Part shown: positions 6,576-62,772 of the stretch, in pieces | Position numbering within the stretch: position 1 is the first letter of the stretch | Layout of the letters: the number at the start of each line of letters is the position of its first letter | DNA from: a virus | Lineage: Duplodnaviria; Caudoviricetes | Virus record (IMG/VR): IMGVR_UViG_3300036783_000183 | Location: 9,075 to 73,074 of that record | Strand: one strand, 5' to 3' | Length of the DNA: 64,000 bases | Program-made: the position numbers and the translations under genes | The notes under the pieces: generated by a model | The model's input: only the letters and a program-made list of their open reading frames with translations | Databases searched by the model: none | What the model was told of the DNA's origin: nothing

Positions 6576-6576
6576 G

Positions 6577-7109: not shown

Positions 7110-7137
7110 GATGGCTGACACCAACTGAGGAGACACC

Positions 7138-8048: not shown

Positions 8049-8080
8049 AAGATCTTCGAGCGATACGGAAGGACAGCATC

Positions 8081-12119: not shown

Positions 12120-12174
12120 GGCTCTCCTTTTTCTCTATGATTACTGATTCACCGATGATGCTACAGGTACCTTG

Positions 12175-13605: not shown

Positions 13606-13614
13606 AAACAAGCC

Positions 13615-14157: not shown

Positions 14158-15085
14158 TGCCGGCGTCCTCGGCGAGGCCCTCGCCCTCGACGGAGCCCTC
14201 GATCGCGGCCTTGTCCTTGGCCTTGGCCTTGGGCAGCTCCTCGGGCGGGGTGTCGAGCAGCGCGAAGTCGTCCAGGGTCAGGATCTCCCCGTCATTCTCG
14301 TCGAAGGCGTAGGCGGACAGGTCCGGCGCGTACTCGGCCGGCAGCTCGTCCATGATGCCGATCGCGTCGTCGTGGTCGGCGATCCGGAACGTGCCGAACT
14401 CCCCGTTGCGCTCCGGCCGCCATTCCCCGACGCCCACGCCCATGCCGCCCGCCTCGATGAGCGAGACCAGCGAGTCGCGGTCGATCAGGTTCTTGGTGTA
14501 GGAGACGTACAGGGTCGCCGACCACCTGGGGAAGCAGCCCCGGTAGCGCAGGTCGGCCGGGTGGTTGACGCCGGCCAGCCGCACGTAGTCCTCCCGCATC
14601 ATCGGCCGCCCGTCGAGCACGACCATGCGGCTCGGCTCGGTCGGCACGGAGACGCCGTAGAAGAACATGAACTGGCGAAGCTCGGTCATCTTGACCTGCT
14701 TGCCGTAGTAGCGCCCGGCGCCGATGGTGGCCATCTTGAAGGCCATGGCCGGGATGCCGAACCGGACCTCGCCGGTCTCGCCGTTGACGCCGGCCCGGTA
14801 CAGCGAGGCCAGGAACTCCCGGCGCGGATCGCGCTTCTCGGGCTGGCGCCGCACGCCCTGCTGGGCGGCGAGCATCTGCGTCTTGGCCTTCTCGGAGAAC
14901 CGGCTGACGATCAGCGGCGAGGTGCCCACGATGTCGATCGCGAGCAGCTCGGTCTCGATCGGCTTGATGACCAGCTTGGCCGGGCCGCCGGCCGGGGCGG
15001 CCGAACGGCCGCGAGCGGCGCGGGTAGTGCTGACGGTCTGGCCGTCTGCTGCCGGAGCTTCCGGCGTAGCCTGAGGTGCAGGCAT
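14141..15085 (-). CDS. Stand-alone RAMP/Cas7-like RNA-binding protein (Vipr-like)
   Basis: RAMP-like motifs: first strand IDIVGTSPL, GIPAMAFKMA (cf. Cas7/Csm3 IPGSSLKG) and the Gly-rich loop GGMGVGVGEWRPERNGEFGTF. No cas1, cas2 or CRISPR repeats nearby. Confidence 0.75.
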   Translation of the reverse strand: MPAPQATPEAPAADGQTVSTTRAARGRSAAPAGGPAKLVIKPIETELLAIDIVGTSPLIVSRFSEKAKTQMLAAQQGVRRQPEKRDPRREFLASLYRAGVNGETGEVRFGIPAMAFKMATIGAGRYYGKQVKMTELRQFMFFYGVSVPTEPSRMVVLDGRPMMREDYVRLAGVNHPADLRYRGCFPRWSATLYVSYTKNLIDRDSLVSLIEAGGMGVGVGEWRPERNGEFGTFRIADHDDAIGIMDELPAEYAPDLSAYAFDENDGEILTLDDFALLDTPPEELPKAKAKDKAAIEGSVEGEGLAEDAGSGDQG

Positions 15086-15187: not shown

Positions 15188-15257
15188 AGAACCTTGGTAC
15201 GGAAATATCAAGGTTTATTGATATTCCCCGGGAAAATTGTCAAAAAATCTTGGTACG
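15181..15257 (+). promoter_or_regulatory. Operator/promoter copy (TATCAAGGTTTATTGATA, 15206-15223) flanked by the direct repeat TTGTCAAA(G/A)AA(C/T)CTTGGTACG
   Basis: Direct repeats at 15181-15201 and 15237-15257 in the divergent intergenic region. Confidence 0.6.
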
Positions 15258-27300: not shown

Positions 27301-29729
27301 TCGGCGAACCAGCCGCCGTGGTCGTCGTGCACGGTGTGGTGGTGCTTGACCCGGGGCAGCGGGCCCATCTCCTCGGCCGCCTCGCGCCGGGCCCCGGCGT
27401 AGGAGTCCTCGCCACGGTGCAGCGCGCCGCCGGGCAGCGCCCAGGTTCCGGGGTGGTCGGTGGCGCCGGTCGAGGTGCGCTTCTGCAGCAGGTAGCGCTT
27501 CGTGCCCTCGTCGTCGGTGTGCCGCAGCAGCAGGAACGCGGCGCCGTGCGGGCCCCAGTGCTCGTGGCCCTGGTCGCAGGTCACGTAGCCATCGCTGTAA
27601 TCCCAGTCGTCGCCACCGGATGAGGCCTGGCGGGCAGCCTCGCGGGGCTCGCGGGGCTCGCGCGGGTACTCGCCGCCGTGGAAGCGGTGGTAGGCCAGCA
27701 CCCGGTCGCGCATCGCGTCGGGCTCGTCGCCGTCACTGGCATCCTCCCAGGTGCGCTCGTGCGGCTGCGGCTGCTCGCGCCACGGGGCGATGTGCTCGAC
27801 GTGCGTCGTCTGGATGTCCTCCGGCTGGGCGATCGCCGAGATGTGCTTCGGGCTGTTCATGGGCCATTCCGTGGTCTTCTGCATGGCCCGCATCGCGGCC
27901 TCGCCGCCACGCCCGAGGTCGGTGTCGTACGGCCCCTCGACATCGTTGCCGTAGGTGATGCCCCGGTGCCCCTGCTCGCGCAGGTGCTGGTTGAAGCCGC
28001 CCAGGATCTCGGGCAGGTGCGGGTGCCACTGCAGGACCTGCTGGGCATGCCCGGCCACCCGCTTGAAGTACCGGGGGTGCGACGGGTCCTCGTTGGTCCA
28101 CTGGCGCTCGGCCAGCTCGTCATCGCTCAGCCCGTGCGGGTTGGGCTCGCCGCCCGGCAGGTGCTCCTCGTGCCAGGCCCGGCGGGTGCCGGCCCGGTCG
28201 GAGTAGCTCCACTGCAGGCTCTGGTTCAGCTTGTCGTCGTGCCAGTGCGGGTAGTGCTTGTCGGCCCACTGGGCGACGGCCAGGTTCAGGTGGTCCTCGG
28301 TGGGATAGTGCGCCGGGTCGCGGAAGTTCAGCCGGGCGTGGACCAGCGCCCCGTGCTGGGAGGAGACGCTGCCGACGAACTTGTGCGCCACCTCGTGCAG
28401 CGGGGAGAGGTGCACGCCCAGGAGCTTGTTGGGCTGCGGCCAGCCCGAGGTCATCTCGCGCTCCCCGGGCTGCTGCTTCATGCGGTCGGCGTCGCCCCGG
28501 CGCTCGCCGAACTCCGGCGTGCCCTTGGTGCCGTGGAACCAGGTGTGATTCCATTCCGGCCGGCCGCCGAACCGGGCGGTGCCGTGATAGGGATTCGGGA
28601 ACGCCTCGCTCTCAGCCACGGCCGTGCGCCAGGTGCTGAAGTGCGCCAGCAGGGATGCGTAATGGCCGGGCGCCTGGTAGGAATCGACCACGCGGAAGGC
28701 CTTCGCGCGGTAATTGCCGTGCGCGAATCTCTCGTCCTCACCCGGCATGCCGTACGGCTCAATATCCCCGACCGGCTCGACCTTATGGACATGGACCGGG
28801 GTATCAGTCAGCGGGCTGAAATCGCGCATCGAGCCGAAGTACCGGGCATTCTCCGGGCTTGTCGTCGCGTGGACATAATCCCCGCCGTGAATGGAGTACC
28901 CGGGATTGCGCCCCTCCGGGGTGAGTACCGTGCCCGGCTCGAATCTGTCCAGGCTGCCGTGATACAGCGGAACGGCCGGATCCCAGGCGGCGAAGTGCGA
29001 CAGCAGGTCAGCAGCCAGGTGATGGCTGGGCTGCCCGAAGTCATGCCGGGTCCACTCGTGCTCGCCGCCGCGCTTCCAGGAGATCCCGGTCAGCCGCACC
29101 GGGGCGCCGTACTTCAGCGGGATCTCGTGCTCCGAGCGCGGGTGGTCGAAGCCGTACATGTGCCGGGCTTCGAGGTTGTCCGGGTCGTGCTCGATCTCGT
29201 GACGCTCCGGGCTCTGCGCGTGCAGCACGATGTGAGTGACCGAGGGCTTGGGCCCGTGCACGCCGACCGGGCCCTCATCCCAGTCCTCGGAGCCCCAGCT
29301 CTTCCCCGCCTCCTCGCTGGGCGTCCAGTGCACGCCCAGGTGGCCCTCGGTGTCCGAGCCCCAGGGGATGTCCTCCTGGGTGCCGCCGTGGAATCCCTCC
29401 CGGTGCAGGTAGCTCCGCAGAGCATGAGCCCGCTCGGCCACCGGGCGGGATTGATCGTGGACAACCTGGTGGACATCACCGGGCAGCTCCCTGGGGAAGC
29501 CACGGTGCATGCCGTGCTGGAACGGCAGGTGCACGCTCCAGTCGGTGTAGGTGTCCCGGTGCTGCTCGGCCTCGATCGGGTCATCGTGGTACCCGTGCAC
29601 CGGGCACTCGCGCATCTGCTCGCATTCCTCGTGCGAGCTGGCCTCGTTCTCGATGTCCTCGTCGTCGAGCGGCTCGCCGCAGTGGATGCAGTCAGGCCGG
29701 GCGCCGAAGTGCGCCATCAGGTCAGGCAT
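24312..29729 (-). CDS. Giant polyvalent protein 1 (1805 aa): several ADP-ribosyltransferase-like domains (one Arr-like), Nudix hydrolase, two ParB/Srx-like domains
   Basis: LYHGSLDRFEPG...YVHATT (Arr-like); WFHGT...GVHLS; YYHGT...VHFTT...VYEV; Nudix box PGGALHRGEDSYAGARREAAEEMG; LWNGHHRTFAL and LNEGNHRRDAA (ParB-like). Confidence 0.85.
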   Translation of the reverse strand: MPDLMAHFGARPDCIHCGEPLDDEDIENEASSHEECEQMRECPVHGYHDDPIEAEQHRDTYTDWSVHLPFQHGMHRGFPRELPGDVHQVVHDQSRPVAERAHALRSYLHREGFHGGTQEDIPWGSDTEGHLGVHWTPSEEAGKSWGSEDWDEGPVGVHGPKPSVTHIVLHAQSPERHEIEHDPDNLEARHMYGFDHPRSEHEIPLKYGAPVRLTGISWKRGGEHEWTRHDFGQPSHHLAADLLSHFAAWDPAVPLYHGSLDRFEPGTVLTPEGRNPGYSIHGGDYVHATTSPENARYFGSMRDFSPLTDTPVHVHKVEPVGDIEPYGMPGEDERFAHGNYRAKAFRVVDSYQAPGHYASLLAHFSTWRTAVAESEAFPNPYHGTARFGGRPEWNHTWFHGTKGTPEFGERRGDADRMKQQPGEREMTSGWPQPNKLLGVHLSPLHEVAHKFVGSVSSQHGALVHARLNFRDPAHYPTEDHLNLAVAQWADKHYPHWHDDKLNQSLQWSYSDRAGTRRAWHEEHLPGGEPNPHGLSDDELAERQWTNEDPSHPRYFKRVAGHAQQVLQWHPHLPEILGGFNQHLREQGHRGITYGNDVEGPYDTDLGRGGEAAMRAMQKTTEWPMNSPKHISAIAQPEDIQTTHVEHIAPWREQPQPHERTWEDASDGDEPDAMRDRVLAYHRFHGGEYPREPREPREAARQASSGGDDWDYSDGYVTCDQGHEHWGPHGAAFLLLRHTDDEGTKRYLLQKRTSTGATDHPGTWALPGGALHRGEDSYAGARREAAEEMGPLPRVKHHHTVHDDHGGWFADTHVADARDKFQPKGGGSTGFEAEGHAWFKQDEIQDLKDEGALHPGFAASWDKVRRSRVDKQASSRQLSLGQASLGRVRPGGSGQGLAVTAVWDYSGSEKTGLYLRFGHWPKSERSFSPAGGYHETGVSVYDLNKHGNPDIDHGLDRGHVHDEWCEPDCDLDTEGPDNDPREEMQGRLVKAERNRYYGEDKPDETAHLVRGEIAGVGYDGEPLLQHVRRVGDWIDHKHLFFPGAERHRLARDEHDEGYEPPRPRGTKTAALYRQYVQRIHPRDLLPYASREAWRMQDPSGSRHISELAEDIRQHGYQPRRHGGMSGDTHSYPPSHPITLVHDDENSWLWNGHHRTFALNEAGYDKPVPVLVKDFRTQGKTAAYYHGTRAEIPDGATLRSNLENRRVHFTTDPDQARLWGTDDYHEGPVRVYEVEPQGEVQEGRGVGGYASHDPVTVIRRHAITYGRGRAHWKQPPETRTGQPGEHMYRVQMPEYHEQTLAHGIPARPSAGMLPDDPPRAVYLTATDRVYHVPPEHGHPGTDAWRREMADHHMYKIDVSGLPLTEDRTYTNPKSGEKPAWMATQDIGPERISPHDPGSEHGVSYSDGTSWHPGQATAALPHQTAERPGTGPALHELADHPDYDREYGYGSGFYGPADQLRGIIDRARGKPDHPVTLYRAGGEIQPGDWVSLTPHYPQDFRPGEKVYSKTVPAAHARLAQSDWTDEFSYQPSPVKTAAADPDDEMERLLQRLSEVLSQPAPPSEHKPVLPSSGELYGGHIAQGPHGLLLAGQPPEHLYRVAHPSEMELARQRGYFQAHSGYTRASAAPDERWRHHTPGGDRADTYQIDYHPDDAWHASAEGYAATHARIPLHRVRKVGAADPQLEVHEYEGTVGDPSHITRSERGMIPVSEISNMRGARGERPGEHRNRQGEKWEDFKRDIAENGIRNPVFITVDHGQDPELNEGNHRRDAALELGLTHVPAEIRYYGHAERQGTVTERAARHTAMVP

Positions 29730-32700
29730 GAGAAGCCCCCGCGTCAGCCGTGGTCATGCCCTGGGCAAGTGCCTGCGGGTGGCCGTCGCCCGGCCCGTAG
29801 ATCACCTGCTTGAGCTTGCCGACCAGGGCGCCGCTGGCCTGGTCGAGGGCCTTCTCCAGGACGTTGCCGGTGCCCTGCCAGCCCATCCCGCCGGGGCCGA
29901 ACGACTCGGCCCGGCCCTCGTGGATGTAGCGCCAGATCCGGCTGGCCTCCTGCCGGCGGAACGGCTCGGGCAGCCGCAGGATGGCGCGCACCTCGGCGAT
30001 CAGCGCGCGGGCCTGCTGCATCAGCGCCGGGCCCTGCGGGAACTGCTCAGCCGACCACTGCGGCAGGTCCGGCGGCTCGACCGTCCAGGTGTCGTCGGAC
30101 AGGTTGTAGGCGGCGTACGGCTTGATGGCGCGGATGTCAGCGGTGTGGATGACGTAGCCGGTCAGGTCGTAAGTGCCGTCCGGGTCGAACGGCGGGTGCC
30201 AGCCGGGGGCGTTGAACCGCTCGCGCAGGACGGTGTTGAGCCGGTGCTCCAGCTCCTCATCCGTCATCTTGTCCAGGCCGGGGTGCGCCAGCCGGGCGTG
30301 ACTGTGCGAGATGCCGACCAGGACATCCAGGTCGCCGTTGCCGGTCAGGTCCGGGCTGGTCCACCGCGAGGCCTGCGAGCCGGCCAGCCAGGCCGTGGTG
30401 ACCAGGTGCCAGTCCGGGCCCAGCGCGTTGCCCAGGACGGTGCCCAGGCGGCTCATCAGCTCGTCCCGGACGGCCGGGCGGAGCTTCTCGTACTCGTCGA
30501 ACAGCCGGTGGTCCAGGCCGTAGGTCGGGCCGAAGATGCGCTCGGTGGGCGTGAAGACGGCCGTGCGGGAGCCCTCCTCCCTGCGCTGGCGGCAGGCGTC
30601 CGCGTCGGCGCACTCCATCGCCAGGCCCATCACGGGGGCGTACGGGCTGGCGCGCGTGAACTCCGATTTACCCGCCCGCACGCCGCACTTCCAGCACTCC
30701 TCCTGATCCGGCTGGAGCGGCTTGCGCCGGGCCCTGGCGCCCGTGCGAGGCGGCTGCTCGGGCTCGTGGTCCTCGCCGGCCAGGTGGTGCTGGGTGATCT
30801 GGATCTGGCCCGGGTCGAACGCGATGGCCGACCGGTTGCCGAGCTTGCCGTACCGGGACTTCTCGTACTCGTTGCCGTAGGTGACGCCATCGTGGCCCTG
30901 GGCCTGCAGCCGCTTCTTGAACCGGTCGGCGATGTCCCACTTGTCCGGGTGGGTGTTCAGCCAGACGGTGCGCATCGGGTGGCCCGCGAACGGGGTATGG
31001 AAATGCCCGTAGGTACTGGCCGGGATCTTGTCGTGGCCGTAGTCCTGCGCGATCCGGTGCGCATGCGGCCACATCTCCTCGACCTCGTACCGCTCGTCGT
31101 CCTCGTCGCCCTCGTCATCGTCGCTATAGTGCTTGCCGAGGCCGGAGATGTGACTGTCAGGGTGGTTCCCGGCCGCGTGCTCGTGCTCGTAGGCCTCGTG
31201 GTCCATGTCGTGCTCGGAGTCGTAGTGCTTGGGGTTCTTCAGCCCCAGCCGGGCGTGCACGACGCCCTCGGGCGGCTCTTCGTCGTCCCAGCCGTGGCGC
31301 TCGCTGGCGCCGGAGGAGTGCTCGCCCCGGGCGAACTCCTCGGCGATGTCGTGGTCGGCGGTGAAGTGCGTGCCGAGCAGCGCGTTCCAGTGGCCGCCCT
31401 CCTCGGACTCGGGCATCTCGTAGGCACCCGGGTGCACGTCGGCCGGATGGTAGAAGCCCTTGCCCAGCTCCTCGTGAGACGCCTGCGTGCCGTGAAACCA
31501 CTCGCTCCCGCCCGTGTGCGGGTTCTGCAGGCCCGGCATCGGCAGGACGGCCTCGTGCTGATTCCACTCGTCCCTGTTGGTCCAATGACCGGGGTCATCG
31601 GGACCTCTGCCGAGGTGGTCAGGGTCGTCCGGGTCCATCCAGCCCTCGTGCTGGCGGGTGGGGACCTCGCTGAGACCCGCCCGCTCGGCCGCCAGCAGCC
31701 GCGTGTGGCCGTTCATGACGCGCGGCGGGCTGGACTCGTAGTCGACCGGGATGGGCCGCTTCACGCCGTTCTGACGTACATCATCGACGAACGCGCGGAC
31801 CGTGGGGTGCTCCCAGACGATGTTGTGACGGACCTCATCCCAGGTACCGAAGTCGGTCGGGGCGTAGTGATCGAGCATGTGCCGGACGGAATCGGTGCGC
31901 TCGGCCGCCGGAATGGCAGTGGCCGTGCGTTCGCGCTCCGCGCGCTCGGCGCGCCGCTTCTCGCGCCGCTCGCGGTTCTGCGCCTCGTACGCCGAGTACA
32001 TCTCCTCCGGCTCATGCTCATGGCACATCGCGTCGGTCCGGCCGCCGCGCGGGCCCTTGCCCCGGTGGTTCTTCCCGCCGCTGAAATGGACCAGGCCGCG
32101 ATTCACCCGGGGGCCCGTGTACGACCACTCGTCCAGGGAGTTGCCCTCGTTGCGCAGGTGCTCGGCGCGGGCCTGGAACTTGACCACCGGGTAATCGTCG
32201 TCGGAGTTGGTGCTCGTGCGCCCCTCGGAGCGGGCATACCGGGCCGAGGTCGATACCCAGTCGCCCGTGTTGATCTCGCGGTGCGGCGAGGGCAGCGCCC
32301 GGTAGGCCCAGACCTTCCGGGAGGGCCAGTCCCGGGACCGGTGCACCTTGTCCATGGACTCCTCGGTGGCGCCCAGCTGGTACTCCCACGGGCGCTCGCG
32401 GAAATCGGTCGGCCAGATCTTGCCCGAGCCGATCTCGTGCAGCCCCTCGCCCTCGCCGGGGTCCGGTCCCTCGTGCTGCATCCGGTACTCGTCCGGGTTG
32501 GTGGCCATCCGGAACCAGGGCACGGAGCCAACGTGGGCCGACCCGATGCGCCGGAACACGGCGGTATGAACCTGGCCGCCGTGCAGCTGCTCGTAGTGGT
32601 GCACCTCCAGGGCGTCCCCGGTGCCGGTGCGCCACTCCCGCATGCCGCCCAGGGGATAGCCCTGGGCCCCGGGCCGGGGCCGGACGTGCAGCAGCGCGAA

Positions 32701-35700
32701 CCTCGACGGGTCCTTGGCCGCGAAGGCCCTGGTGTCGGTGGCGAAGAACATCGGGTCCTCGGCGCCGCCGGCGTGCTCCCGGTGCGCCGCGAAGTGCTTG
32801 TAGAAGTCGGCCGCGTTCTCCCGGCGCTGGTCCGGGTCCATCTCCTTCTCCCACCAGGCGTGCATCTTCTGCGGCGGCTTGTGCCCGCTCATCCAGCCCT
32901 CGTCGTCACGGGCCGGGCGCCAGCCGGGGCCCCGGGCCTTGTCGATCATCTCCTGGCTGGAGCCCATCGTGTTGTCGCGCTGGACGGCGTGGATCGTGTT
33001 GTGCAGCCCCCGGGGCAGCTCGTCGCCGTCCTTCCACTTGCTGTCCCAGTAATGCGCGATGTCCTCGTGGAACGGGCGGCTGGCGCCCTTGCCCGCCTTC
33101 GCGTCCTCCCACATCTGCCTCGGGGTGTACTTGCCGTTGACCACGCCGTGGAACTCGTGCAGGGAGCGCAGGATGCCCCGGCCCAGCTGGTGGTCCGTGG
33201 TGACGGAGATGGTGTCGTCCTCACCGCCGCCCAGGCCGTGCCCGCCGCGTATCTGGCTCAGCTCCTCGCGGGTCTTCAACCCGTGCTCGCGCACCGAGGG
33301 CAGGTCAGTGGTGGCGTGGTACATCTCGCGCGGCAGCGGCTGCCAGGTGGAGTGGCCGTAGTTGTCGGTAGCGTGGCCGCTGGCGTAGTAGCCGTGCGCC
33401 TTGGCCTGCTCCCCGGTCAGGTGGCCGAGGGACAGGCCGCGCTGGATGTGCGCCTTCCACCGCCGGCGCGTCTCGAACATGCGCTCGTTGTGCGCGTCCC
33501 GCTTCTCGTCCGGCCAGTCCCGGGGCGCGAATTTGTACTCGGGCTCAGGGCCGTACTCGGGGTGCTCTGCCAGCACGGCCTGGTGCTGCTGCCCCCATTC
33601 ATGGCCGCAGTTCTCGCAGCCTGTCTCGCCCTTTGAGACAAGGTGCCCGCATTCCGGGCACTCCCTGGTCTCGCTGCACGGCTTGTAGGCGCCGTGGGTG
33701 CTGGTGATGCGGGCCTGGTCCGGGTGGAAGATGATGGCGCACCTGTGGCCGATCGGCTGCTCGTACTCGTTCCCGTAGGTGATCCCGTCGTGGCCCTGCG
33801 ACTGCAGGTGGCGCCGGAAGCCCTCGGCGATCTGCTGGCTCTGCGGGTGCTGCTGCAGGGCGTCGGACTCGCCGTTCTCGTGGTAGCTGATCAGGCCCCT
33901 GTAGCCGTGGCCGCGCGCCCACTGGAAGCCTTCGCGCGCCAGGTCGTGCTCGGAGGCATAGTCCTTCGGGTGCTGCATGCGGACATCGACGTGGTAGACG
34001 TGACCGTCGCCATGGGCGCGGGCCGCCTCGGCCGCCATCGGGTGCTCGCTGGTGAAGTGGGAGCCCAGCCGCGAGTTCCACCAGCGGGTCTCGGGCGATT
34101 CCTCGCCGATGCTGCGGGCGTACTCCTCCTCGTCCTGGTGCTTCAGGCTCCGCTTGCTGAAGTCGAAGCGCTCGAACGGCTCGGGGTTGTCGCTGCCGTG
34201 GTACATGTCCGCAGCGGTGTGCGCGCCGCCAGGCCCCCAGGCGTACATGCGCAGGGTGACAGCCGCCTGCTTCCTGCTGGATTCTTCCGTCAGGCGCCGG
34301 GGAGTCCACGTCCCGGAGCGCACCGCCATCGCGTCCCAGCCCAGCTCGTGGGCGACCAGAACCCGGCGGTGCCCGTCATCCAGACGGCCCCGGTTGACCA
34401 CCAGGTCCCCGGGCTGTATGCCCAGGCCCATCCGGCGGCGCAGCTCATCGCCGCCGTCCTCGTCGTTGTCCAGCTTCTCGCGGATGTCGTCCAGGTGGTC
34501 CCCGACCCGGCCGCCGTAATCACCCGAGCGCAAGTTCAGGATGTCCTCCAGCGGCATGCGGCGGTAGCCGGCAGCCTGCTTCTGGTGGCCGCAGCAGGCC
34601 ACAGGAGGGCCCCAGTAGCCCTGCTCGCGGTAGCCGCCCGACCCGGCGTCCCGGACGTGCCTCGCTGGCACCAGGGCGTGGTGCACCACGTACCGGGCCT
34701 GGGGGTCGTCACTGCCGGACTCGGCGTAGGCGTGCTTGAGCGCGTAGGCCCGGGAGAGAGTCACCCAGTCGCCCGTATTGATCTCGTGCGGGGCCGAATG
34801 ATGGGTGGCCCGGTAGATGCGCACCGGGGTATCCGGCTTGCCCCGCACCTTGCGCATCTGGGCGATTGCCTCGGCATCATCGCGGACGCCTTCGGTCGGC
34901 GAGTCGGTGTAGTACTGCCGGTGCGTCAGGTAGTCCCCGGGCAGGTACGAAGTCTGGTCGAAGTCGGCGTCCGGGGCGTCACCGGCCAGGTCGTGGATCG
35001 GGGCACCATGCTGCATCGGCCGGTGGCCGATGCCGTAGTCCTCGACCCCGGCCTCGTGCTCCATCGGCGGCGGCTTCCACATGTAGCTCTCCGGCAGGAA
35101 CTCCGAGGGCCGCAACGCCGCCGGGATGTGCCTGCTGTGCCGCTCGTAGATCTCCGGGCCCTTCGACGGGCCGGGCAGCTTGTACTTGCGCCGGGCCGGG
35201 ATCCAGCTGTGCCGGTGGCCGGTGACCGGCACCGCCTCGTGCCCGGCCTGCGCCGCCCAGGCCAGGCGGCTGTTGCCCTCGGTGACGTAGGCGTAATTGG
35301 ACTTCGGATCCCAGGTCAGGTGGATCGGCTCGCGGATGCCGTGCGCCGCGACATCGCCGGCCATGTCGTCCCACTCCTGCGGGGTATGCCGGGGAGCCAT
35401 TTCCTGGCCTTCGGGGCTGCGCGACCAGCCGGGGCCGTGATGCCACTCGCGGTGCTTCATCAGCGCGTCGGTGCGCACCCACTCCACCGGGCGCTCCGGG
35501 TCGTGCAGGTGGCTGAGGTCGCCGCCGGGCAGCACGGCCTGGCGCCAGTGGCGGCGCTTCGGCGGGTTCGGCTGATCGTTCTCGCGCCCGGGGCACCACG
35601 GCATAGCCGCGTCGTCGCCCCGGTGCATCGCGCCGGAGCCGTCGCAGCGGTCGCACTCGCTGCGGTCCTCGTGCTCGCCCGTGGCGCGGCAGCAGCTGCA

Positions 35701-35757
35701 GGGCTCCTCGCCCCGGCCCGGCCGGGCAGCGGCGAAGTGCTCCAGGATGTCAGCCAC
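29722..35757 (-). CDS. Giant polyvalent protein 2 (2011 aa): three ParB/Srx-like domains, multiple ART-like domains, C-terminal Pol-beta nucleotidyltransferase
   Basis: VTEGNSRLAWA, LDDGHRRVLVA and VMNGHTRLLAA (ParB-like); MYHGS, MYHAT, WFHGT and IYRA...TGDWV(T/S) (ART-like); WLAGSQAS...NGDLDVLV (NTase). Confidence 0.85.
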   Translation of the reverse strand: MADILEHFAAARPGRGEEPCSCCRATGEHEDRSECDRCDGSGAMHRGDDAAMPWCPGRENDQPNPPKRRHWRQAVLPGGDLSHLHDPERPVEWVRTDALMKHREWHHGPGWSRSPEGQEMAPRHTPQEWDDMAGDVAAHGIREPIHLTWDPKSNYAYVTEGNSRLAWAAQAGHEAVPVTGHRHSWIPARRKYKLPGPSKGPEIYERHSRHIPAALRPSEFLPESYMWKPPPMEHEAGVEDYGIGHRPMQHGAPIHDLAGDAPDADFDQTSYLPGDYLTHRQYYTDSPTEGVRDDAEAIAQMRKVRGKPDTPVRIYRATHHSAPHEINTGDWVTLSRAYALKHAYAESGSDDPQARYVVHHALVPARHVRDAGSGGYREQGYWGPPVACCGHQKQAAGYRRMPLEDILNLRSGDYGGRVGDHLDDIREKLDNDEDGGDELRRRMGLGIQPGDLVVNRGRLDDGHRRVLVAHELGWDAMAVRSGTWTPRRLTEESSRKQAAVTLRMYAWGPGGAHTAADMYHGSDNPEPFERFDFSKRSLKHQDEEEYARSIGEESPETRWWNSRLGSHFTSEHPMAAEAARAHGDGHVYHVDVRMQHPKDYASEHDLAREGFQWARGHGYRGLISYHENGESDALQQHPQSQQIAEGFRRHLQSQGHDGITYGNEYEQPIGHRCAIIFHPDQARITSTHGAYKPCSETRECPECGHLVSKGETGCENCGHEWGQQHQAVLAEHPEYGPEPEYKFAPRDWPDEKRDAHNERMFETRRRWKAHIQRGLSLGHLTGEQAKAHGYYASGHATDNYGHSTWQPLPREMYHATTDLPSVREHGLKTREELSQIRGGHGLGGGEDDTISVTTDHQLGRGILRSLHEFHGVVNGKYTPRQMWEDAKAGKGASRPFHEDIAHYWDSKWKDGDELPRGLHNTIHAVQRDNTMGSSQEMIDKARGPGWRPARDDEGWMSGHKPPQKMHAWWEKEMDPDQRRENAADFYKHFAAHREHAGGAEDPMFFATDTRAFAAKDPSRFALLHVRPRPGAQGYPLGGMREWRTGTGDALEVHHYEQLHGGQVHTAVFRRIGSAHVGSVPWFRMATNPDEYRMQHEGPDPGEGEGLHEIGSGKIWPTDFRERPWEYQLGATEESMDKVHRSRDWPSRKVWAYRALPSPHREINTGDWVSTSARYARSEGRTSTNSDDDYPVVKFQARAEHLRNEGNSLDEWSYTGPRVNRGLVHFSGGKNHRGKGPRGGRTDAMCHEHEPEEMYSAYEAQNRERREKRRAERAERERTATAIPAAERTDSVRHMLDHYAPTDFGTWDEVRHNIVWEHPTVRAFVDDVRQNGVKRPIPVDYESSPPRVMNGHTRLLAAERAGLSEVPTRQHEGWMDPDDPDHLGRGPDDPGHWTNRDEWNQHEAVLPMPGLQNPHTGGSEWFHGTQASHEELGKGFYHPADVHPGAYEMPESEEGGHWNALLGTHFTADHDIAEEFARGEHSSGASERHGWDDEEPPEGVVHARLGLKNPKHYDSEHDMDHEAYEHEHAAGNHPDSHISGLGKHYSDDDEGDEDDERYEVEEMWPHAHRIAQDYGHDKIPASTYGHFHTPFAGHPMRTVWLNTHPDKWDIADRFKKRLQAQGHDGVTYGNEYEKSRYGKLGNRSAIAFDPGQIQITQHHLAGEDHEPEQPPRTGARARRKPLQPDQEECWKCGVRAGKSEFTRASPYAPVMGLAMECADADACRQRREEGSRTAVFTPTERIFGPTYGLDHRLFDEYEKLRPAVRDELMSRLGTVLGNALGPDWHLVTTAWLAGSQASRWTSPDLTGNGDLDVLVGISHSHARLAHPGLDKMTDEELEHRLNTVLRERFNAPGWHPPFDPDGTYDLTGYVIHTADIRAIKPYAAYNLSDDTWTVEPPDLPQWSAEQFPQGPALMQQARALIAEVRAILRLPEPFRRQEASRIWRYIHEGRAESFGPGGMGWQGTGNVLEKALDQASGALVGKLKQVIYGPGDGHPQALAQGMTTADAGASHA

Positions 35758-35802
35758 GGCAGCCTCCTCAAGGCTTCCGGGCGGAGCGCTCAGAGCCTGG
35801 TG

Positions 35803-52823: not shown

Positions 52824-53075
52824 CACCTGCCAAACCTGACCATGCCGCGCCGAGCACAAACGTGCCGATCTGCGCCGTGCCTTACCCAGACTGCCAGGCC
52901 AAACCTCGCCACGTCCCGCCGCACTCCGCCTCGACTGCCTAGCCCCGCCTGAACGGACCCCGCCCGGACATGCCTCGCTAAGCAAAGCCTCGCCGCGCCA
53001 GGCCTCGACTGCCATGCCTCACCGCGCCCCACAGTGCCAGACCCCGCACTCCGCACCTCGCCGCGCTGCGCCGCG
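52824..53075 (-). ncRNA. GGY-NN mini-array (about 4 units)
   Basis: Delimiters at 53007, 52933 and 52889 (spacings 74 and 44, both 5n+4); 5-nt period throughout; ends in GGCAGG. Confidence 0.7.
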
Positions 53076-53103
53076 CCTTCACGCTATAATCATAGCGTGA
53101 AGG
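53076..53103. other. Perfect 12-bp hairpin at the 5' end of the mini-array
   Basis: CCTTCACGCTAT-AATC-ATAGCGTGAAGG. Confidence 0.6.
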
Positions 53104-53104
53104 T

Positions 53105-53385
53105 CCCCACGGCATCGCCCACGCCAGCCACGGCATTCCCCACGGCATAATTACGGGCTGACCTGCGGACCCACGGCACCACGCCATAATCGGCGATATT
53201 TTCCTGTGGCGCCGTCACTCTTCCCCCCTCAAAGTTGATTTATCAATAAATAATAAAAATTGAAGTCTGCTGTGGCAGCTCACAGAAAAAGGTTGCAGAA
53301 AATGCCGTGGTGCTGTGGGTGCCCAGCTCAGGGGCACTTTATGCCGTGGGGAATGGCGTGATTGCCGTGGGAAATGCCGTGGGGA
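53105..53385. other. Putative replication origin: AT-rich core flanked by inverted iterons (CCACGGCAT / ATGCCGTGG)
   Basis: CCACGGCA at 53107, 53128, 53140 and 53171; TGCCGTGG at 53303, 53342, 53363 and 53375; AT-rich core ~53230-53265; immediately downstream of the primase gene. Confidence 0.7.
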
Positions 53386-53388
53386 CGC

Positions 53389-56133
53389 TCATCCCTCCTC
53401 TTCTTCTGAGGCTACGTCGCGGATGAACGAGGCGGTCACCAGGCGGGCCCTGATCTCGCGGCTGCCGGACGATGCCCAGCCCTTCTCGTACAAGATGCCG
53501 GATACCCCCATCGGCAGGTGCAGCTCGGTCATCTTCCGGCCCAGCCACGAGCTGCTCTTCGGCCACCACGACTCGGCCGTGGCCAGCCCGGCGAACTCGC
53601 TCAGCTGGTTGTAGAACGCCTCGGGCGTCCCGGTGAACTCGCCGCCAGGCTGCGCCTCCAGCCAGCGCCGCAGGAGCACGATCAGCGGGTCATCGGCCGC
53701 CGCGTGCAGCTGGATCTCCGCGCTGTGCTGGAGATACGCCGGATAGAGACCGAGCCCGTAAGCCAGGTCGCAGGCAAACAGGACTCTGCCGAAATCGGCC
53801 ATCTCCGGCAGGTCATCCAGCTGCACGCGCTCAGCGGCCTCCAGCTCGCGCAGCACGCCGGCCAGGAGCAGGAACACAGCACCCAGGACCCTGCTCTTGA
53901 TGAGGTCGTACCGCTGCCACAGCATGGAGGCATCAGGATGCTGATCAGTAGCCGGCAGATCCAGGTGCAGGACCCGGCGCAGCGCATCGGGCTTCAGCCC
54001 GGCCGGGAGCACCAGGCTGGTCGCCAGCCCCATCCGTTTGTATTCAAACGACAGCAACGTGGCGTCTGAATGTAGCTTCCGGACGTTCTCGACTGTACCC
54101 GTGTGCAGTCGGCACCACCAGTCGCTCAGGTCCTGGCTCAGCGTCGTGATGTTGTCCTGGGAGACAACGTACTCGTGCACCGCCCTGGTCCGAGCGTCAC
54201 GCTCGTCCCGCTTGAGGTTCAGCCGCGAACCCAGCTGGGCGGCCGGGTCGACCAGGCCGAGCAGCATCCGTCCTCTTGTCGTCTTTCCCGACCCGGATGG
54301 TCCGGAAATCCACCAGCCCGGCCGGTCCAGATTCGGGAAGTAAGCGCCGACCAAACCGCACAAGAGGACCAGCCACTGCTCCTCGGAGAGGTCCAGGAGG
54401 AACTTCATCTCCCCCAGGGCACCCCGGACATCTCCGGGATCCTCGGGCCGGACCTGAGGCAGCGCGCCGCCGCCGCGCCGGAACCACGGCTGGCCGTCCA
54501 GGGTGCGCGGATCCCGTACCGAGAAGCCGTCCCTGGTGATCAGGACGACCATGCCGGTGTCATCGGCCAGGTCGACGATGATCCGGGTCCTGCTGTCGCT
54601 GCAGCACCGGATGTGCTGGGTGACCGGCTTATTCCCGCTCGCGGAGGCGCGCAGGTGCGACAGGGTGTTCGAGAACGTGCCGTCAGGCGGGAAGATCGCG
54701 ACGAAGGCGTCCTCGTCGTCGTCCTTCTTCGGCGGGGCATCCGGGTCAATCTTGCCGATGCTCTTCGAGACGTTCTCGTTCCAGGCCTCGGCCACGGTTC
54801 GCCACCACCTGCGCAGCGTGAGGCCCAGCTCGTCGCCGATGTCACCGACCAGAGGAGGCTCGGCCAGGTCCGTAGGGCGGCTGATGAACTCCCCGGTCGT
54901 CGACCGCCGCAGGTCGAACAACTGCTCAAAACTGTAGACAGCCGAGGTGATGCTGGGCGGCACCTTGGGCGCGGGGCCCGCTACCTCGAACACAAAATCG
55001 GGCAGCTCGCCGCTGCGCGGCTTGAGCTGGGCCCCCTCGAACGAGCTGCGCAGCGTCCGCATGATCTCGGCACCGCGCAGCTGGCAGGACTCGGCGGCGC
55101 TCTTGAACGCCGTGGCGATCTCGCCCGGGTCGAGCAGGCCGGCCACGCCGAACCGGCTAAAGATGTTGAAACTTTCAGTATTCAGGCTCTTGTTGCGCTC
55201 GCCCATGGGCGTCTCGGCTACCCGCTGGGCGGCGCTCTCCAGGGCCGACCGGATATAGGCACTGGCGCGCCGGGACAGCTCAGCAGGCGCCTGGCGGCTG
55301 TCCTCGCCCTTCGGCAGGGCCTTCAGCCGCTCCTCGCGCTTGCGCTGCTGGTCGGCCAGCCAGTCGGCCAGCCAGGCTGGCGGCGGCGCCGGGGCGGTGT
55401 CGGCGAGCATCACGTACGGGCCCCGGCCCGAGACGGACGGCGGGACGATGCCGTAGCCGCGCACGCCCCTGATATCGAGGTGCGAAGCCAATTCGGACAC
55501 GCTGTTGCGGACCTCGGTCCCCGGCGGGATCTGCAGGATGAATCCGCGCCCGCCGCTGCCGGTGCGGTACATCATCGTGTGCGGCAGGTCCTCGCCATGG
55601 TGGCTGATCAGCGTCGTCAGGCTCTGGTCGCCGTCCTTCTCGTCGCTGATGTCGACATCGAGCAGGAAGACGTTCACGCCCATCAGCACGCCGAGGTTGG
55701 CGTGAGGCCGCCAGTCCTCGCCGGCGTCCTGGGCGGGATCCCTCGGCCGCCACCAGCGGGCGGCGTGCTCGGGGTCAGCACTGGCCGTATCCGGCCACGA
55801 CATGTCGATCGGATGCTTGCCGGGGTTATCGCAGCGGGCCCCGGCCGGGCAGGCGCAGGTGCCGGCGTTCATCCACCAGACCGGAAACAGCTGCAAGCCG
55901 AAATCGCTTGCGTAATGGCACGCTGACTCATAGGCGCGGCGCCGGTAGTCTTCCTCGGCGGCGGTCAGCTCATCGGCGCTGATATCCCCTTTGTAATCAT
56001 CGGCGTACTCAAAAGGAAATGCGCTGGTTACTGACGCGGCATGGCCGTTTCCGCTATCCTGGCCGGCAGGGATAGGTCGATCAGTGCGGGCCCCCGGTTC
56101 CTCAGTGCCGGGGGTCTCGTCTTGCCCGCCCAC
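53389..56133 (-). CDS. Bifunctional primase-polymerase (Prim-Pol) fused to a P-loop ATPase/helicase domain
   Basis: CACP...CDNPGKHP, ANLGVLMG...FLLDVD, TGSGGR, HLDIRG...GIVPPS; GPSGSGKTT; VSQDNI. Confidence 0.88.
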   Translation of the reverse strand: MGGQDETPGTEEPGARTDRPIPAGQDSGNGHAASVTSAFPFEYADDYKGDISADELTAAEEDYRRRAYESACHYASDFGLQLFPVWWMNAGTCACPAGARCDNPGKHPIDMSWPDTASADPEHAARWWRPRDPAQDAGEDWRPHANLGVLMGVNVFLLDVDISDEKDGDQSLTTLISHHGEDLPHTMMYRTGSGGRGFILQIPPGTEVRNSVSELASHLDIRGVRGYGIVPPSVSGRGPYVMLADTAPAPPPAWLADWLADQQRKREERLKALPKGEDSRQAPAELSRRASAYIRSALESAAQRVAETPMGERNKSLNTESFNIFSRFGVAGLLDPGEIATAFKSAAESCQLRGAEIMRTLRSSFEGAQLKPRSGELPDFVFEVAGPAPKVPPSITSAVYSFEQLFDLRRSTTGEFISRPTDLAEPPLVGDIGDELGLTLRRWWRTVAEAWNENVSKSIGKIDPDAPPKKDDDEDAFVAIFPPDGTFSNTLSHLRASASGNKPVTQHIRCCSDSRTRIIVDLADDTGMVVLITRDGFSVRDPRTLDGQPWFRRGGGALPQVRPEDPGDVRGALGEMKFLLDLSEEQWLVLLCGLVGAYFPNLDRPGWWISGPSGSGKTTRGRMLLGLVDPAAQLGSRLNLKRDERDARTRAVHEYVVSQDNITTLSQDLSDWWCRLHTGTVENVRKLHSDATLLSFEYKRMGLATSLVLPAGLKPDALRRVLHLDLPATDQHPDASMLWQRYDLIKSRVLGAVFLLLAGVLRELEAAERVQLDDLPEMADFGRVLFACDLAYGLGLYPAYLQHSAEIQLHAAADDPLIVLLRRWLEAQPGGEFTGTPEAFYNQLSEFAGLATAESWWPKSSSWLGRKMTELHLPMGVSGILYEKGWASSGSREIRARLVTASFIRDVASEEEEG

Positions 56134-58805: not shown

Positions 58806-58980
58806 CGGCGGTCATCAAGATCAACATCCATAGACAACAGTAGTATCAAGGAACCTGATTCCCCTGGTAACCAGCCCCGTCGCGGAGTTGCGGGTTTGCT
58901 CTAGGTTCTTTGATACACTCAAGGCTCACCGGCCCGGGGATACGGCCCCGGGCCCGTATGGCCAGGCTGCCGAGAGGCAG

Positions 58981-59718
58981 ATGGCCGGAACGGAGGAACG
59001 CGTGAGCGTTCAGTCAGCAGAGATCCCGCAGAAGGCCGACATCGACGCCGGGGTGCGCGATGCCTACGAGGCCGAGGGATACATCCTCCCGGACGGGAAC
59101 AAGGACAACACCAAGGTGCGCGAGCGCATCGTGGCCGTCCTGGCCCCGCACAAGGTCCTGAAGTGGGCCGACCGCGAGGAGAAGGCCATCACCAGGGGCG
59201 CCCTGGTGCAAGCCGTCTTCCCGTCCCTGACCGGGCCGGAAGGCTTCGGCGACGCGGACGACCCGCAGCTGGCCCTGGCCATCTGGACGGCCATCGACGG
59301 GAACCTGTGGAACGAGCTGCGGCCCGGTGCCGCCGGCCCGATCCAGAAGATGGTCGGCCTGAGCATGGGCAACGGCTACGTCCTCATCCGGTGCCAGATC
59401 GGCGTGGACCGCATCGGCGCGGCCTACATCACCGATGACCTCAAGTGCATCGAGCGGGACCTGCTCGGGCCGGACAACACCACGCTCGCGCGGCTGCTGG
59501 ACCGGCTCGTCGCCACCCGGTCGATGCTGATCCTGCGGCAGCCGGACAACGCCGGCCGGTACGCCACGGGGCTGGACCGGCAGATGAAGGCGCTGTCGGC
59601 GTCGTCCCACGAGCAGCTCAAGCTGGCCATCGAGGCTTCCACCTCGGCCGGCGGGGATGACGAGGGCGGCGAGCCCGGCAACGGCGACGAGCCCGGCGAC
59701 GGGCCCGGAGAGAACTAG
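58981..59718 (+). CDS. Hypothetical protein
   Basis: ATG 58981 after GAGAGG; extended -10 TGATACACT at 58911-58919. Confidence 0.65.
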   Translation: MAGTEERVSVQSAEIPQKADIDAGVRDAYEAEGYILPDGNKDNTKVRERIVAVLAPHKVLKWADREEKAITRGALVQAVFPSLTGPEGFGDADDPQLALAIWTAIDGNLWNELRPGAAGPIQKMVGLSMGNGYVLIRCQIGVDRIGAAYITDDLKCIERDLLGPDNTTLARLLDRLVATRSMLILRQPDNAGRYATGLDRQMKALSASSHEQLKLAIEASTSAGGDDEGGEPGNGDEPGDGPGEN

Positions 59719-59769
59719 GGGGAGGTGAAGCGGGGGGCGCCGGCCTGGCCGGTGCCCCTCGCGCCTGCT

Positions 59770-60378
59770 ATGGCACGGAACAAGCGACAGGCCCTCTCCG
59801 ACGAGCAGATCGAGGAGGCCGTCCAGCAGGGCATCTACGGCCGCGAGCAGATCGCGGCCCGCTTCGGCATCAGCGAGTCGGCGGCCCGCCGGGCCGAGCC
59901 GGTCATCCGGGCCATCGCCCGGGAGCGGGAGCGGGCCGGCGGCAAGCGGCCGAAGGGCAGCAGCCTGCCCCGGAACTGGAACGGGACGCCGCCCAAGGCC
60001 CGCGTCCGCGAGCTGAAGAGCTACCGGGCCCGGGGCGGCGACACGTACCCCGGCCTGCTCACCCTGCAGCTGCGGATCAGCGAGCTGAGCGCGGCGCTGG
60101 CCAGCGTCCGGGTCGAGGACTACGGCCTGGACCAGGTGTCGCTGGCGCGGCTCACCGACATGCACGATGACCTGCTGGCCCTGGCCGACTGGATGGACCG
60201 GACGCTCTCCTCGGTCCAGGCGCGGCTGAGCGATACCGAGGTGCGCGCGAAGATCGCGATGCTGCGCAACATCTCCGGCTTCACCGAGCATGAGGCGAAA
60301 ACGAGGCTCGCGCTGGCGGACCGGCTGGAGCGCAAGCTCGGCAACAGGCTGGCTAGTAGCCCAGCTCCAGCCCGGTAA
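59770..60378 (+). CDS. N-terminal HTH, coiled-coil protein
   Basis: GREQIAARFGISESAARRA. Confidence 0.6.
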   Translation: MARNKRQALSDEQIEEAVQQGIYGREQIAARFGISESAARRAEPVIRAIARERERAGGKRPKGSSLPRNWNGTPPKARVRELKSYRARGGDTYPGLLTLQLRISELSAALASVRVEDYGLDQVSLARLTDMHDDLLALADWMDRTLSSVQARLSDTEVRAKIAMLRNISGFTEHEAKTRLALADRLERKLGNRLASSPAPAR

Positions 60379-60505: not shown

Positions 60506-60549
60506 GTCCCTTCCGGGGGCAGAGGATGTGCTATAAATATTGATATTCA

Positions 60550-62535
60550 TGGCGCAAGGCAAGGCGCGCATCGGCGGGCCTCGGCGTCGGCCTGGCAGTC
60601 ACGGAGGGGCTTGGCGCGGATTGGCAGGTCTTGGCAGTGCTCGGCGAGGCAGTCATCGCGAGGCATGGCACGACATGGATAGGCGTCGTCCGGCAAGGCA
60701 GTCAAGGCGTCGCATGACCGGGCGTGCCTGGGCGAGGCTTGGCAAGGCAGTCTAGGCGCAACGTGGCGCGGTCGACCCTGGCATGGACCGGTACGGCAGT
60801 CACGGCGTGGTGCGGCGAGGATGGCAGCGCGAGGCGTGGCCTGGTGAAGCACGGCAGTCATCGCGAGGCCGGGCGCAGCATACCGAGGCTAGGGACGGCC
60901 TGGCCGTCATCGCTAGCCTGGGCTCGGCACGTCAGGGCCAGGCGTGGCATGGCATGGCCGTCATCGCACGGCAAGGCGTAGCACGGCGGGTCCTTGCATG
61001 GCATCGCAGGTGAGGCGCGGCTGGGCTTAGTGACGCGTAGCGTGGCCGGGCAGTCGAGGACTGGCTAGCGCGGCTTCACCTGGCGGTGTGTCGCCTGGCA
61101 CGGCCGTCATCGCGTGGCGGTGCCTGTCCTGGGCGGCTCGGCGTCGCGGTGCACGGTACGGCATGGCCGGATCGGCTCGGGTGGGCGCGGCTAGTCGAGG
61201 CATGGCAAGGCACGGCTCGGCAGGATCGGCCAGGCGCGGGTTGGCCAGGCAGGGCAAGGCACGGCTCGGCCGGGCTGGGACCGGCAGTCAGGTCAGGGTA
61301 CGGCGTAGCACGATACGGCTCGGCCGGGCTTGGACCGGCAGTCATGGCATGGCTCTCTAAGGCGCGGCTGGTCGAGGCACGGGCTGCTCGGCTCGGCGCG
61401 GCTCGGCCGGAACGGCTTTGTTTGGCGTAGCGGGGCGCAGCTGGGCTTAGCTTGGCAATGCTTGGCCCGGCAAGGCAGGTATAGCTGGGCTGTTCAGTGC
61501 TAGGGCGGTGCGGCGCGGCGAGGCAGTCTAGGCATGGCGGGTCAGGGCATCTCGGTGCGAGGCCCGGTATGGCCAGGCAGTCAAGGCTAGGCGTGGCCTT
61601 GCAGGGCCTGGCGCGGCCCGGTCCGTCTCGGCAGTCACGGCAAGGCAAGGCGAGGACAGCCGGGCGCAGCAGTCAAGGTGAGGCCTGACCAGGCGAGGCG
61701 TGTCAAGGCTGGGCCGTCAAGGCAAGGCCTGGCGCGTCCTGGCAGGTCATGGTGAGGCACGGCTCGGCAGTCAAGGCTAGGCATAACGAGGCGGGGCGTC
61801 GTGAGGACAGCGGGGCCGTCAAGGCACGGCACGTCCCGGCAGGGCACGGCTAGTCTCGGCTTGGCTAGTCTGGGCCTGGCAGTTAAGGCGGGTCGGGGTT
61901 TGGCGCGGCAGGGATAGCCATGCTCGGCAAGGCAGTCACGGATCGGCACACCGGGTCGTGTCTTAGCGTGGCGAGGTCGGCCAGGCAGGCCGGGCACGGA
62001 GAGCTTGGCACGGATTGCGGGGCACGGCCGTCAAGGCGTAGCAAGGCCGGGCCAGGATCGCGTAGCGAGGCGCGGCTGGGCCGTCCAGGCTGATCTTGGC
62101 GGAGCGGTGCTCGGCACAGCTGGGTATCGCATGGCCCGGCACGGCAGTCATGGCATAGCGGGACGGGGCAGGTCAGGGACAGGCCTGGCCCGGCACGGCA
62201 GTCATCGCACGGCGCGGTGTGGCCAGACGCGGAGTGCATGGCACGGCGCGGCCGTCAGCGCAAGGCTGGGCCCGGCCAGGCCCGGACACGCGCGGCGGGG
62301 CTCGGCAGAGCCGTCAAGGCAGAGCGGGGCAGTGCCAGGCTGGTCCTGGCATGGAGAGCGCGGCCGTCCAGGTGCGGTTCGGGACGGCAAGGCGTGGCAG
62401 GTCGGGTCGAGGCGCGGCAGGTCAGGGCCGTCTAGGCGAGGCCTGGCCCGGTGTAGATAGCGCGGTGCGGCAGGGCCGTCATCGCACGGCGGGTCCAGGC
62501 GCGGCTAGTCTCGGTTAGGCAGGGTCGGCAGGCAG
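60550..62535 (+). ncRNA. Large orphan GGY-NN pentamer array (about 31 guide-like units)
   Basis: 31 GGC(A/C)GTC-type delimiters (4 degenerate) from 60594 to 62474; 27 of 30 spacings are 5n+4 or 5n+3, mostly 44-64 nt. AT-rich leader with ATTGATATT at 60539-60547; ends in GGCAGGCA. Confidence 0.8.
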
Positions 62536-62538
62536 CTG

Positions 62539-62772
62539 CTACGTGCCCTGCGCCTGGCCGGTGGTGAAGCGCAGCAGCTGCGCCGTCAGCGGGGAGTACG
62601 TCGTGTCGGTGAAGCCGAAATTCGTGGTGCCGGCGACCGCGTTGCGGCCGGTGCCGAGCACGCACTCGGCCTGGGCGCCCAGGTCGGTGTTGTTCGCCGA
62701 CAGCGATGGGTCCACCGGGCGGTAGTCCAGCACGGTCGGCACCTGGCCGAACACCTGCGGGGGAAGTGCCAT
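62539..62772 (-). CDS. Small hypothetical protein
   Basis: GGAG RBS; convergent with the array. Confidence 0.55.
   Translation of the reverse strand: MALPPQVFGQVPTVLDYRPVDPSLSANNTDLGAQAECVLGTGRNAVAGTTNFGFTDTTYSPLTAQLLRFTTGQAQGT

Follow-up and report, generated by a model that had tools for sequence, protein, structure and literature searches.

The interval 60550-62536 of the phage DNA analysed here, called array A, is very probably a staggered array of VIPR guide RNAs (vrRNAs) that would act in trans far from vipr, the gene of their protein partner, and is one of five such arrays in the genome. The DNA is a window of 64,000 nucleotides (nt), bases 9075-73074 of the 73,074-bp contig IMGVR_UViG_3300036783_000183 from a high-GC actinophage (Caudoviricetes), and positions are those of the window unless the genome is named. 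VIPR comprises a minimal RAMP protein, Vipr, and vrRNAs of 9-16 YNNGG repeats in which GGY is conserved and NN, the hypervariable part, reads double-stranded DNA, skipping one base per repeat. In "staggered arrays" adjacent vrRNAs overlap by 1 nt (bioRxiv 10.64898/2026.04.26.720920, with fig. S18 for the overlap). Vipr assembles on the vrRNA as a polymer, its protomers sequestering GGY and presenting NN (10.64898/2026.04.26.720927). We assign array A to VIPR because of its GGYNN grammar, its exclusive phase shifts of -1, the single Vipr gene, the co-occurrence of vipr and arrays in relatives, and the information content of NN. An earlier note, made from the bare sequence, had proposed a trans-acting guide reservoir for the single RAMP protein of the window, a proposal that the grammar, the NN diversity, the NN constraint and an own promoter-like leader support. 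The system, treated there as possibly new, was published in 2026 as VIPR, staggered arrays and orphan vrRNAs included (10.64898/2026.04.26.720920; 10.64898/2026.10.15.759431). In the feature line that follows, the slash marks the junction between units.

60550-62536, plus strand: array A, putative staggered VIPR vrRNA array; about 356 GGYNN pentamers, 29 canonical GGCM/GTYNN junctions, 41 blocks.

The pentamer grammar is visible in simple distances. The plus strand of array A (60550-62535) holds 222 GGC triplets in 1,986 nt, and successive triplets lie 5 (95 times), 10 (43 times) or 15 nt (19 times) apart, or one less, namely 9 (22 times), 14 (17 times) and 19 nt (7 times), with few other distances. 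Control regions of the window contain 2-4 pairs at distance 5, against the 95 of array A. The delimiter GGC[AC]GT[CT], whose background frequency is about 0.6 per kb on each strand, occurs 28 times (60594, 60648, 60697 ... 62474), at the positions listed in the earlier note, and the quantised spacings reported there are recovered: 14 of the 27 spacings are 5n+4 and 8 are 5n+3, because one shift of -1 yields the former and two the latter, while the other five are multi-unit blocks holding further -1 shifts. A five-state Viterbi parse, in which both insertions and deletions were allowed, resolves array A into 356 pentamers with 51 phase shifts, all of them -1 and none a gain. Its log-odds are +375, compared with about -410 for coding controls of equal length. 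Shifts would be exclusively -1 because neighbouring vrRNAs overlap by 1 nt. The canonical GGC[AC]/GT[CT]NN form accounts for 29 of the 51 shifts and the rest resemble GGCA/GGNNN or GGAN/NGCNN. The estimate of about 31 units in the earlier note agrees with the number of canonical junctions. If each GGVN-type terminal token is counted, the number of blocks rises to 41, of which 32 have 8 or more NN; modal units have 9-12 repeats. No open reading frame (ORF) in 60550-62536 carries the signature in third-codon-position G+C that marks the genome's own genes.

The constant and variable parts of the pentamer differ sharply in information. Entropies at positions 1-5 are about 0.9, 0.97, 0.87, 1.95 and 1.99 bits in array A, and the NN dinucleotide reaches 3.9 of 4 bits against about 0.9 bit per triplet position, in line with the earlier note's expectation of diverse NN on a conserved GGY; both NN strings quoted there are correct. 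GGC makes up 51% of triplets and GTC 15%, with lesser shares of GGT/GGA and [ACT]GC (AGC, CGC, TGC). The NN bases are about 50% A+T, while the genome is 70% G+C. Near-identical tandem duplicates, which the earlier note had named as the contrary case, were sought among units of at least 8 repeats, and no pair has 75% or more of its NN in common, either within array A or among arrays A, B and C (shuffled maximum 0.69). Duplications in array A are only of sub-unit size (3-5 pentamers) and cluster around 61204-61345, where adjoining units hold 3-5 identical pentamers in common (GGCAA GGCAC GGCTC; GGCTC GGCCG GGCTK GGACC). These runs suggest that array units may arise via local duplication followed by divergence.

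Related phages, compared over +/-10 kb around matched genes, keep the site of array A and exchange most of its content. The anchor for this comparison was the second of two genes directly preceding the array.

58888-60375, plus strand: two co-oriented genes upstream of array A, of 276 amino acids (aa; function unknown) and 217 aa (weak helix-turn-helix match), syntenic with the array in relatives.
60550-60651, plus strand: leader-proximal ~100 nt of array A, near-identical among three related phages, whose flanking genes are less conserved.

The 217-aa gene had no relative in a search of the viral contig collection; homologs were found at 88% identity in a JGI contig (L008) and at 66% identity in the ENA contig contig_57652 (L009), which also carries a vipr homolog plus an array. 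Both homologs are followed by co-oriented arrays, of 2.1 kb and 2.6 kb respectively, and the leader of array A is kept in both. Flanking DNA is 79-89% identical among the related phages, and the array interior is mostly non-collinear among the three. Array A and L008 have ten unit pairs with at least 80% of NN in common, six of them at 100%, which stand in the same order at different index positions; with L009 there are four pairs. The unit gain and loss that the earlier note wished to see compared is seen here: judging from these contigs, most units are swapped between related phages and few are retained, and the site and leader are kept.

In the common units NN is identical while triplets differ. 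In winA_34, a guide described below, and its two orthologs, one triplet reads ATC, GTC or TGC and another AGC or GGC. To avoid ascertainment bias we used a split-half design, in which unit pairs were picked on alternate pentamers (exact NN match, at least 5) and changes were counted in the other pentamers. Triplets changed at 38 of 282 positions and NN at 9 of 188 (odds ratio 3.1, Fisher p=0.0025), counts that are not fully independent since the three genomes are related. A looser selection rule gave no triplet/NN difference, because chance pairs contaminated the selection. On these counts, NN positions are under stronger constraint (purifying selection) than the scaffold in orthologous units. 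This pattern, constant NN on a drifting GGY scaffold, supports the published NN code on independent, evolutionary grounds.

The protein partner is encoded once in the 73-kb genome, as the earlier note had supposed in speaking of a single RAMP protein, and the next gene is a candidate accessory gene.

14141-15085, minus strand: vipr (314 aa), with no second RAMP gene in the genome; fold Cas7-like, with the G-loop GMGVGVGEWRP.
13669-14157, minus strand: candidate vap (162 aa, phrog_15946), in relatives always the gene directly after vipr.

In the PDB, the single Vipr sequence had one match of note, 36pp_D, "SUSP1 Vipr protein" (E=0.0018), and a 30-sequence profile of its family matched only 36pp_D (E=3.8e-7), across the G-loop GVG[DE]WRP. 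The 314-aa protein also matches phrog_4652 at 4e-31. Its AlphaFold model (pLDDT 78.8, pTM 0.72) matches chains of Csm3, Cas7, type VII Cas7 and Cmr4 at probability 1.0 in Foldseek. No relative of solved structure was found for the candidate vap. In five metagenomic relatives the order is vipr, a 158-aa gene and then an array of 1.3-2.1 kb. Two loci, L005 and L006, encode the same Vipr protein in two samples and have arrays of 1388 and 1326 nt (62 nt apart) with 31 and 29 blocks, a difference that is unit gain or loss between near-identical phages. The vipr homologs of the Gordonia phages UmaThurman and Ecliptus each have a GGYNN array directly after them.

L001 (NC_031249.1), 4619-4942: array after the UmaThurman vipr homolog, annotated as protein-coding gene 40.
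L002, 4603-4865: array after the Ecliptus vipr homolog.

Such arrays in cultured Gordonia phages are annotated as protein-coding, as with UmaThurman gene 40, or left as a gap; they are probably vrRNA arrays in isolated phages with growable hosts.

Besides array A, the same pentamer grammar occurs at four further places in the genome.

12090-13610, minus strand: array B, operon-linked, directly downstream of vipr-vap; 31 blocks.
Genome 5736-8050 (about 1.0-3.3 kb before the window start), minus strand: array C, the largest, about 2.3 kb; 50 blocks, 61-63 shifts of -1 and no +1.
11088-11189, minus strand: mini-array of about 2 units.
52824-53103, minus strand: mini-array of about 4-6 units.

Array C lies between the portal gene and a giant ORF. 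In the core parse, the ratio of -1 to +1 shifts is 41:1 in array B and 61:0 in array C, and the -1-only pattern is also seen in 7 arrays of relatives. About one third of the -1 shifts in arrays A, B and C are not GGCM/GTYNN and follow a GGA-type pentamer (GGANN GCNN, that is GGAN NGCNN); they often stand 1-3 repeats ahead of a canonical junction, which produces the 5n+3 class of units. The junction NN of array A are biased to A-N, unlike those of arrays B and C. Combined, the five arrays span about 6.2 kb (8.5% of the genome) with about 125 blocks, 91 of them with 8-14 NN. Array A lies 45.5 kb from vipr within the window and on the opposite strand, which matches the 46 kb given in the earlier note; on a circular contig the route in the other direction would be about 25 kb. 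A giant minus-strand ORF is split between the two ends of the contig, which is therefore circular or permuted. The description of array A as a larger orphan array stands as far as its reality, strand and remote position go, but it is not the largest of the genome, since array C measures 2.3 kb.

Array A has a leader of its own.

60520-60549, plus strand: leader of array A, with the extended -10-like TGCTATAAA (60529-60537) and then ATTGATATT (60539-60547).

The 9-mer TGCTATAAA has two copies in the 73-kb genome, directly 5' of arrays A and C and co-oriented with both. It fits an extended -10 element, which suggests a promoter function. ATTGATATT is a half-site of the phage's repeated ATCAA-N6-TTGAT operator/promoter-like motif, so the operator half-site that the earlier note saw in the leader is there (at 60539); the other three plus-strand copies of ATTGATATT belong to a repeated motif found upstream of genes, CAAGGTTTATTGATATY, with the inverted repeat ATCAA-N6-TTGAT in it. 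The AT-rich repeated motif TTGCATTAYCAAGGTTTATTGATATY, with ATCAA-N6-TTGAT, stands upstream of genes at 2350, 4889, 7101, 15217 and 21094 on the plus strand and looks like a phage promoter/operator family; a motif of the TTGCATTAYCAAGGTTTATTGATATY type lies at 15205-15225, in the divergent region upstream of vipr.

Under the assignment to VIPR, a promoter of the extended -10 type at about 60529-60547, belonging to array A itself, would drive its transcription on the plus strand. By analogy with the published staggered-array model, cuts in the transcript at or near GGCM/GTYNN junctions would release units that are about 45-65 nt long and carry 8-13 GGYNN repeats. The single Vipr, given its homology to SUSP1 Vipr, would then polymerise on each unit, its protomers holding GGY and presenting NN. 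The NN string would read double-stranded DNA by the NN-x-NN one-base-skip rule and so silence transcription of competing mobile elements or host genes. Array A would in this way work in trans, far from vipr, as one of five arrays that together have about 125 units, about 90 of them of guide length.

Candidate targets were searched with the published NN-x rule (one-base skip), and the searches against the phage itself and its relatives used skip rules of 0-3 nt. No unit matched its own genome above permutation level, and no guide matched the fetched loci of relatives above that level, vipr genes and arrays included. The VIPR preprint likewise describes no self-targeting and places target skips often at codon wobble positions (10.64898/2026.04.26.720920). 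Two guides gave candidate targets elsewhere.

61580-61633, plus strand: guide winA_23 (10 NN), common to L008; candidate target a divergent ECF-like sigma gene of Streptomyces sp. NPDC041068.
62083-62146, plus strand: guide winA_34 (12 NN), with identical NN and differing triplets in three phages; candidate target in a Streptomyces genome.

Guide winA_23 has one exact match (20/20 NN) in 596 Gb of species genomes, at NZ_JBEZCG010000034.1 positions 30170-30198, and its L008 ortholog, with one more NN, matches 22/22. The skipped bases are the wobble positions of the encoded motif DGGASLSTYF, and the gene belongs to a divergent ECF-type sigma-70 family, with family matches that are weak and below threshold. 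Among 401 Streptomyces genomes, the site occurs with at most 3 mismatches in 20, against 3 for a reversed control, a count that adds no independent support because all but two or three of the 20 are in the same gene family (L021 and L023 are not). The phage and the winA_23 target contig have no genes in common. Guide winA_34 matches 22/24 NN in one of 151 Streptomyces genomes, with a chance estimate of about 0.02 under uniform bases, and this match is wobble-aligned in a 737-aa ORF (730 aa from the first start codon). It falls in an island of 12 kb with 55-64% G+C (G003:C36:17000-29000; L027-L029) on a contig of about 70% G+C elsewhere, and the genes of the island gave no family matches. The Streptomyces target contexts yielded no phage or defence family matches, so the low G+C is all that speaks for a mobile element. 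Both matches are candidate targets, and Streptomyces is a candidate for the host genus; we take these as suggestions only and not as findings. The guides in this way point to Streptomyces as a possible host and to candidate targets that can be tested.

Several results weigh against the VIPR assignment. Transcription of array A, its strand, the processing sites and Vipr loading are all inferred from sequence. A two-hexamer sigma-70 scan found no promoter at array A, and a terminator scan found no intrinsic terminator at its ends, the terminator-like sites being only internal or in the next gene. About 20 of the 51 shifts in array A are non-canonical, and part of the array may be degenerate or follow another grammar; some blocks comprise only 0-5 repeats, and about 9 have fewer than 6. 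The target evidence is thin: a single exact 20-base match in 596 Gb is about what chance would give, no further guide converges on either target contig, and exact target scans returned no match for winA_34 (viral, genome and metagenome collections), winA_35 (metagenomes) or winA_23 and winA_14 (viral contigs).

Some of these features could also be taken as signs of a largely decayed, non-functional relic of former vrRNA arrays kept by chance. The many degenerate triplets, with GGC at only ~51%, GTC at 15% and AGC, CGC and TGC among the others, the ~9 short blocks and the local partial duplications at 61204-61345 all fit decay. However, 2 kb of junk would hardly persist in a 73-kb phage, at one locus shared by three diverged relatives and behind a conserved leader, NN is under purifying selection, and random decay would give +1 shifts and other indels, which are absent. 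Functional vrRNAs are, moreover, often degenerate inside, according to the VIPR preprint (10.64898/2026.04.26.720920), and we consider a relic very improbable. An element acting as DNA, either a binding lattice (e.g. for ParB-domain polyvalent proteins) or (G2N3)n two-tetrad quadruplexes serving replication, packaging or partition, is the least credible of the alternatives, and only marginally conceivable. It would draw on the strong G-rich strand asymmetry of array A (GC skew +0.2), and GG runs 3 nt apart could in principle form weak quadruplexes. Yet such an element leaves unexplained why NN is invariant in orthologous units with drifting triplets, why shifts are only -1, and why arrays are constantly paired with a Cas7-like vipr in unrelated actinophages; the 5-nt period and the GGY/NN rule also match the experimentally defined vrRNA (10.64898/2026.04.26.720920).

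Somewhat less improbable, though still quite unlikely, is that array A encodes vrRNA-like RNA as a decoy or hijacker, whose units load competitors' Vipr or sequester the phage's own Vipr and are not a guide store. Solo or orphan vrRNAs with such roles have been published: 1-2 tailed vrRNAs occur in satellites and in vipr-null SUSP1-like phages, and those of satellites redirect the helper's VIPR to decoy sites (10.64898/2026.10.15.759431). Array A, with its own promoter-like leader far from vipr, resembles them in placement, and the A-N bias of its junction NN could mark a distinct class. But its grammar and junction motif are common to arrays B and C, its leader is common to array C, relatives have no guide match in their vipr genes or arrays, and its position is conserved in vipr-positive relatives (contig_57652 being the case in point).

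Array A does not have the form of a CRISPR array. The constant part of array A is a 3-nt triplet every 5 nt with no direct repeats, and Tandem Repeats Finder output contained no identical direct repeats of 23-50 nt around unique contiguous spacers. No cas1/cas2 or other cas gene was seen among the ORFs examined, a handful of the 65 having been scanned against family libraries, with no systematic cas/CRISPR scan. There are points in common with Class 1 CRISPR and its Cas7 backbone filaments, namely a RAMP-fold protein and a multi-unit array that would be processed into guides, and, as with CRISPR arrays, related strains have some units in common and differ in others. Unlike CRISPR, however, constant and variable parts are interleaved every 5 nt, the target would be read non-contiguously as NN-x, and cas genes are absent from the ORFs examined. 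No Rfam family reached gathering score in the window and a tRNA scan was also empty, so the units are not interspersed with hammerheads. Megablast of the array region against GenBank phages returned zero matches.

Like published staggered VIPR, the phage has a single Vipr gene of the Cas7 type, followed by a small accessory gene, and no cas gene among the ORFs examined. Its units comprise about 9-13 GGYNN repeats, conserved in GGY and hypervariable in NN, and overlap by 1 nt; as in published VIPR, the system is phage-borne and without self-targets. Unlike published VIPR arrays, array A lies 25-46 kb from vipr and would fall outside the 20-kb windows that the discovery pipeline examined (10.64898/2026.04.26.720920). 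It also differs in its own promoter-like leader and in belonging to a set of five arrays with ~6.2 kb and ~125 units. A structured 3' tail (about 40 nt, with a pseudoknot), as in type II SUSP1 vrRNAs, was not found between array A units, which are separated by GGCM/GTYNN only; the tail defines type II and not VIPR overall, and staggered arrays are described as being without it. Like solo or orphan vrRNAs, the units are encoded away from vipr and would act in trans on Vipr, but those are 1-2 tailed vrRNAs in vipr-less elements acting on another's Vipr, whereas here ~30-40 units stand in a vipr-positive high-GC actinophage. Thus, array A is a large, remote example of an already published system and not a new kind, and what is particular here is the large scale, the dispersal of arrays in a vipr-positive actinophage, the own leader at remote arrays and the clear signature of NN versus scaffold.

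The descriptions of VIPR are as recent as 2026 and concern mainly proteobacterial phages, which have a few guides beside vipr. A bolder reading, which we think unlikely, is that this lineage runs VIPR at an undescribed scale (~125 units in five separately promoted arrays, 8.5% of the genome, some of which the published 20-kb survey would have missed), with part of the guides aimed at Streptomyces-like chromosomal regulators, e.g. the divergent ECF-type sigma gene, or at low-GC islands. If true, VIPR would be a means of broad, many-target silencing of host and rival-element transcription and not a few-guide anti-satellite weapon. With most guides in large, separately promoted arrays tens of kb from vipr, surveys centred on vipr would undercount guides.

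The remaining observations concern the surroundings of the arrays. Array A is bounded at its 3' end by a convergent gene whose stop codon abuts it.

62539-62772, minus strand: convergent 77-aa gene, its stop codon adjoining the array 3' end.

Neither of the two genes upstream of array A is a RAMP; the 276-aa protein was considered as a second RAMP and rejected (hhalign probability 0.02). Short direct repeats resembling ATGCCGTGGGA, with periods of 12 and 21, are clustered at 53100-53390 beside the mini-array at 52824-53103; the cluster is iteron-like and may be a replication origin. Tandem Repeats Finder reports a further repeat at 11701-11948, with a period of 78-81 nt and about 3 copies at 73-80% identity. 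The minus strand of 24312-35802 holds two giant ORFs of 1814 and 2027 aa, and a relative's homolog has Pfam matches to Arr-ms, ParB_N and NUDIX, which fits polyvalent proteins.

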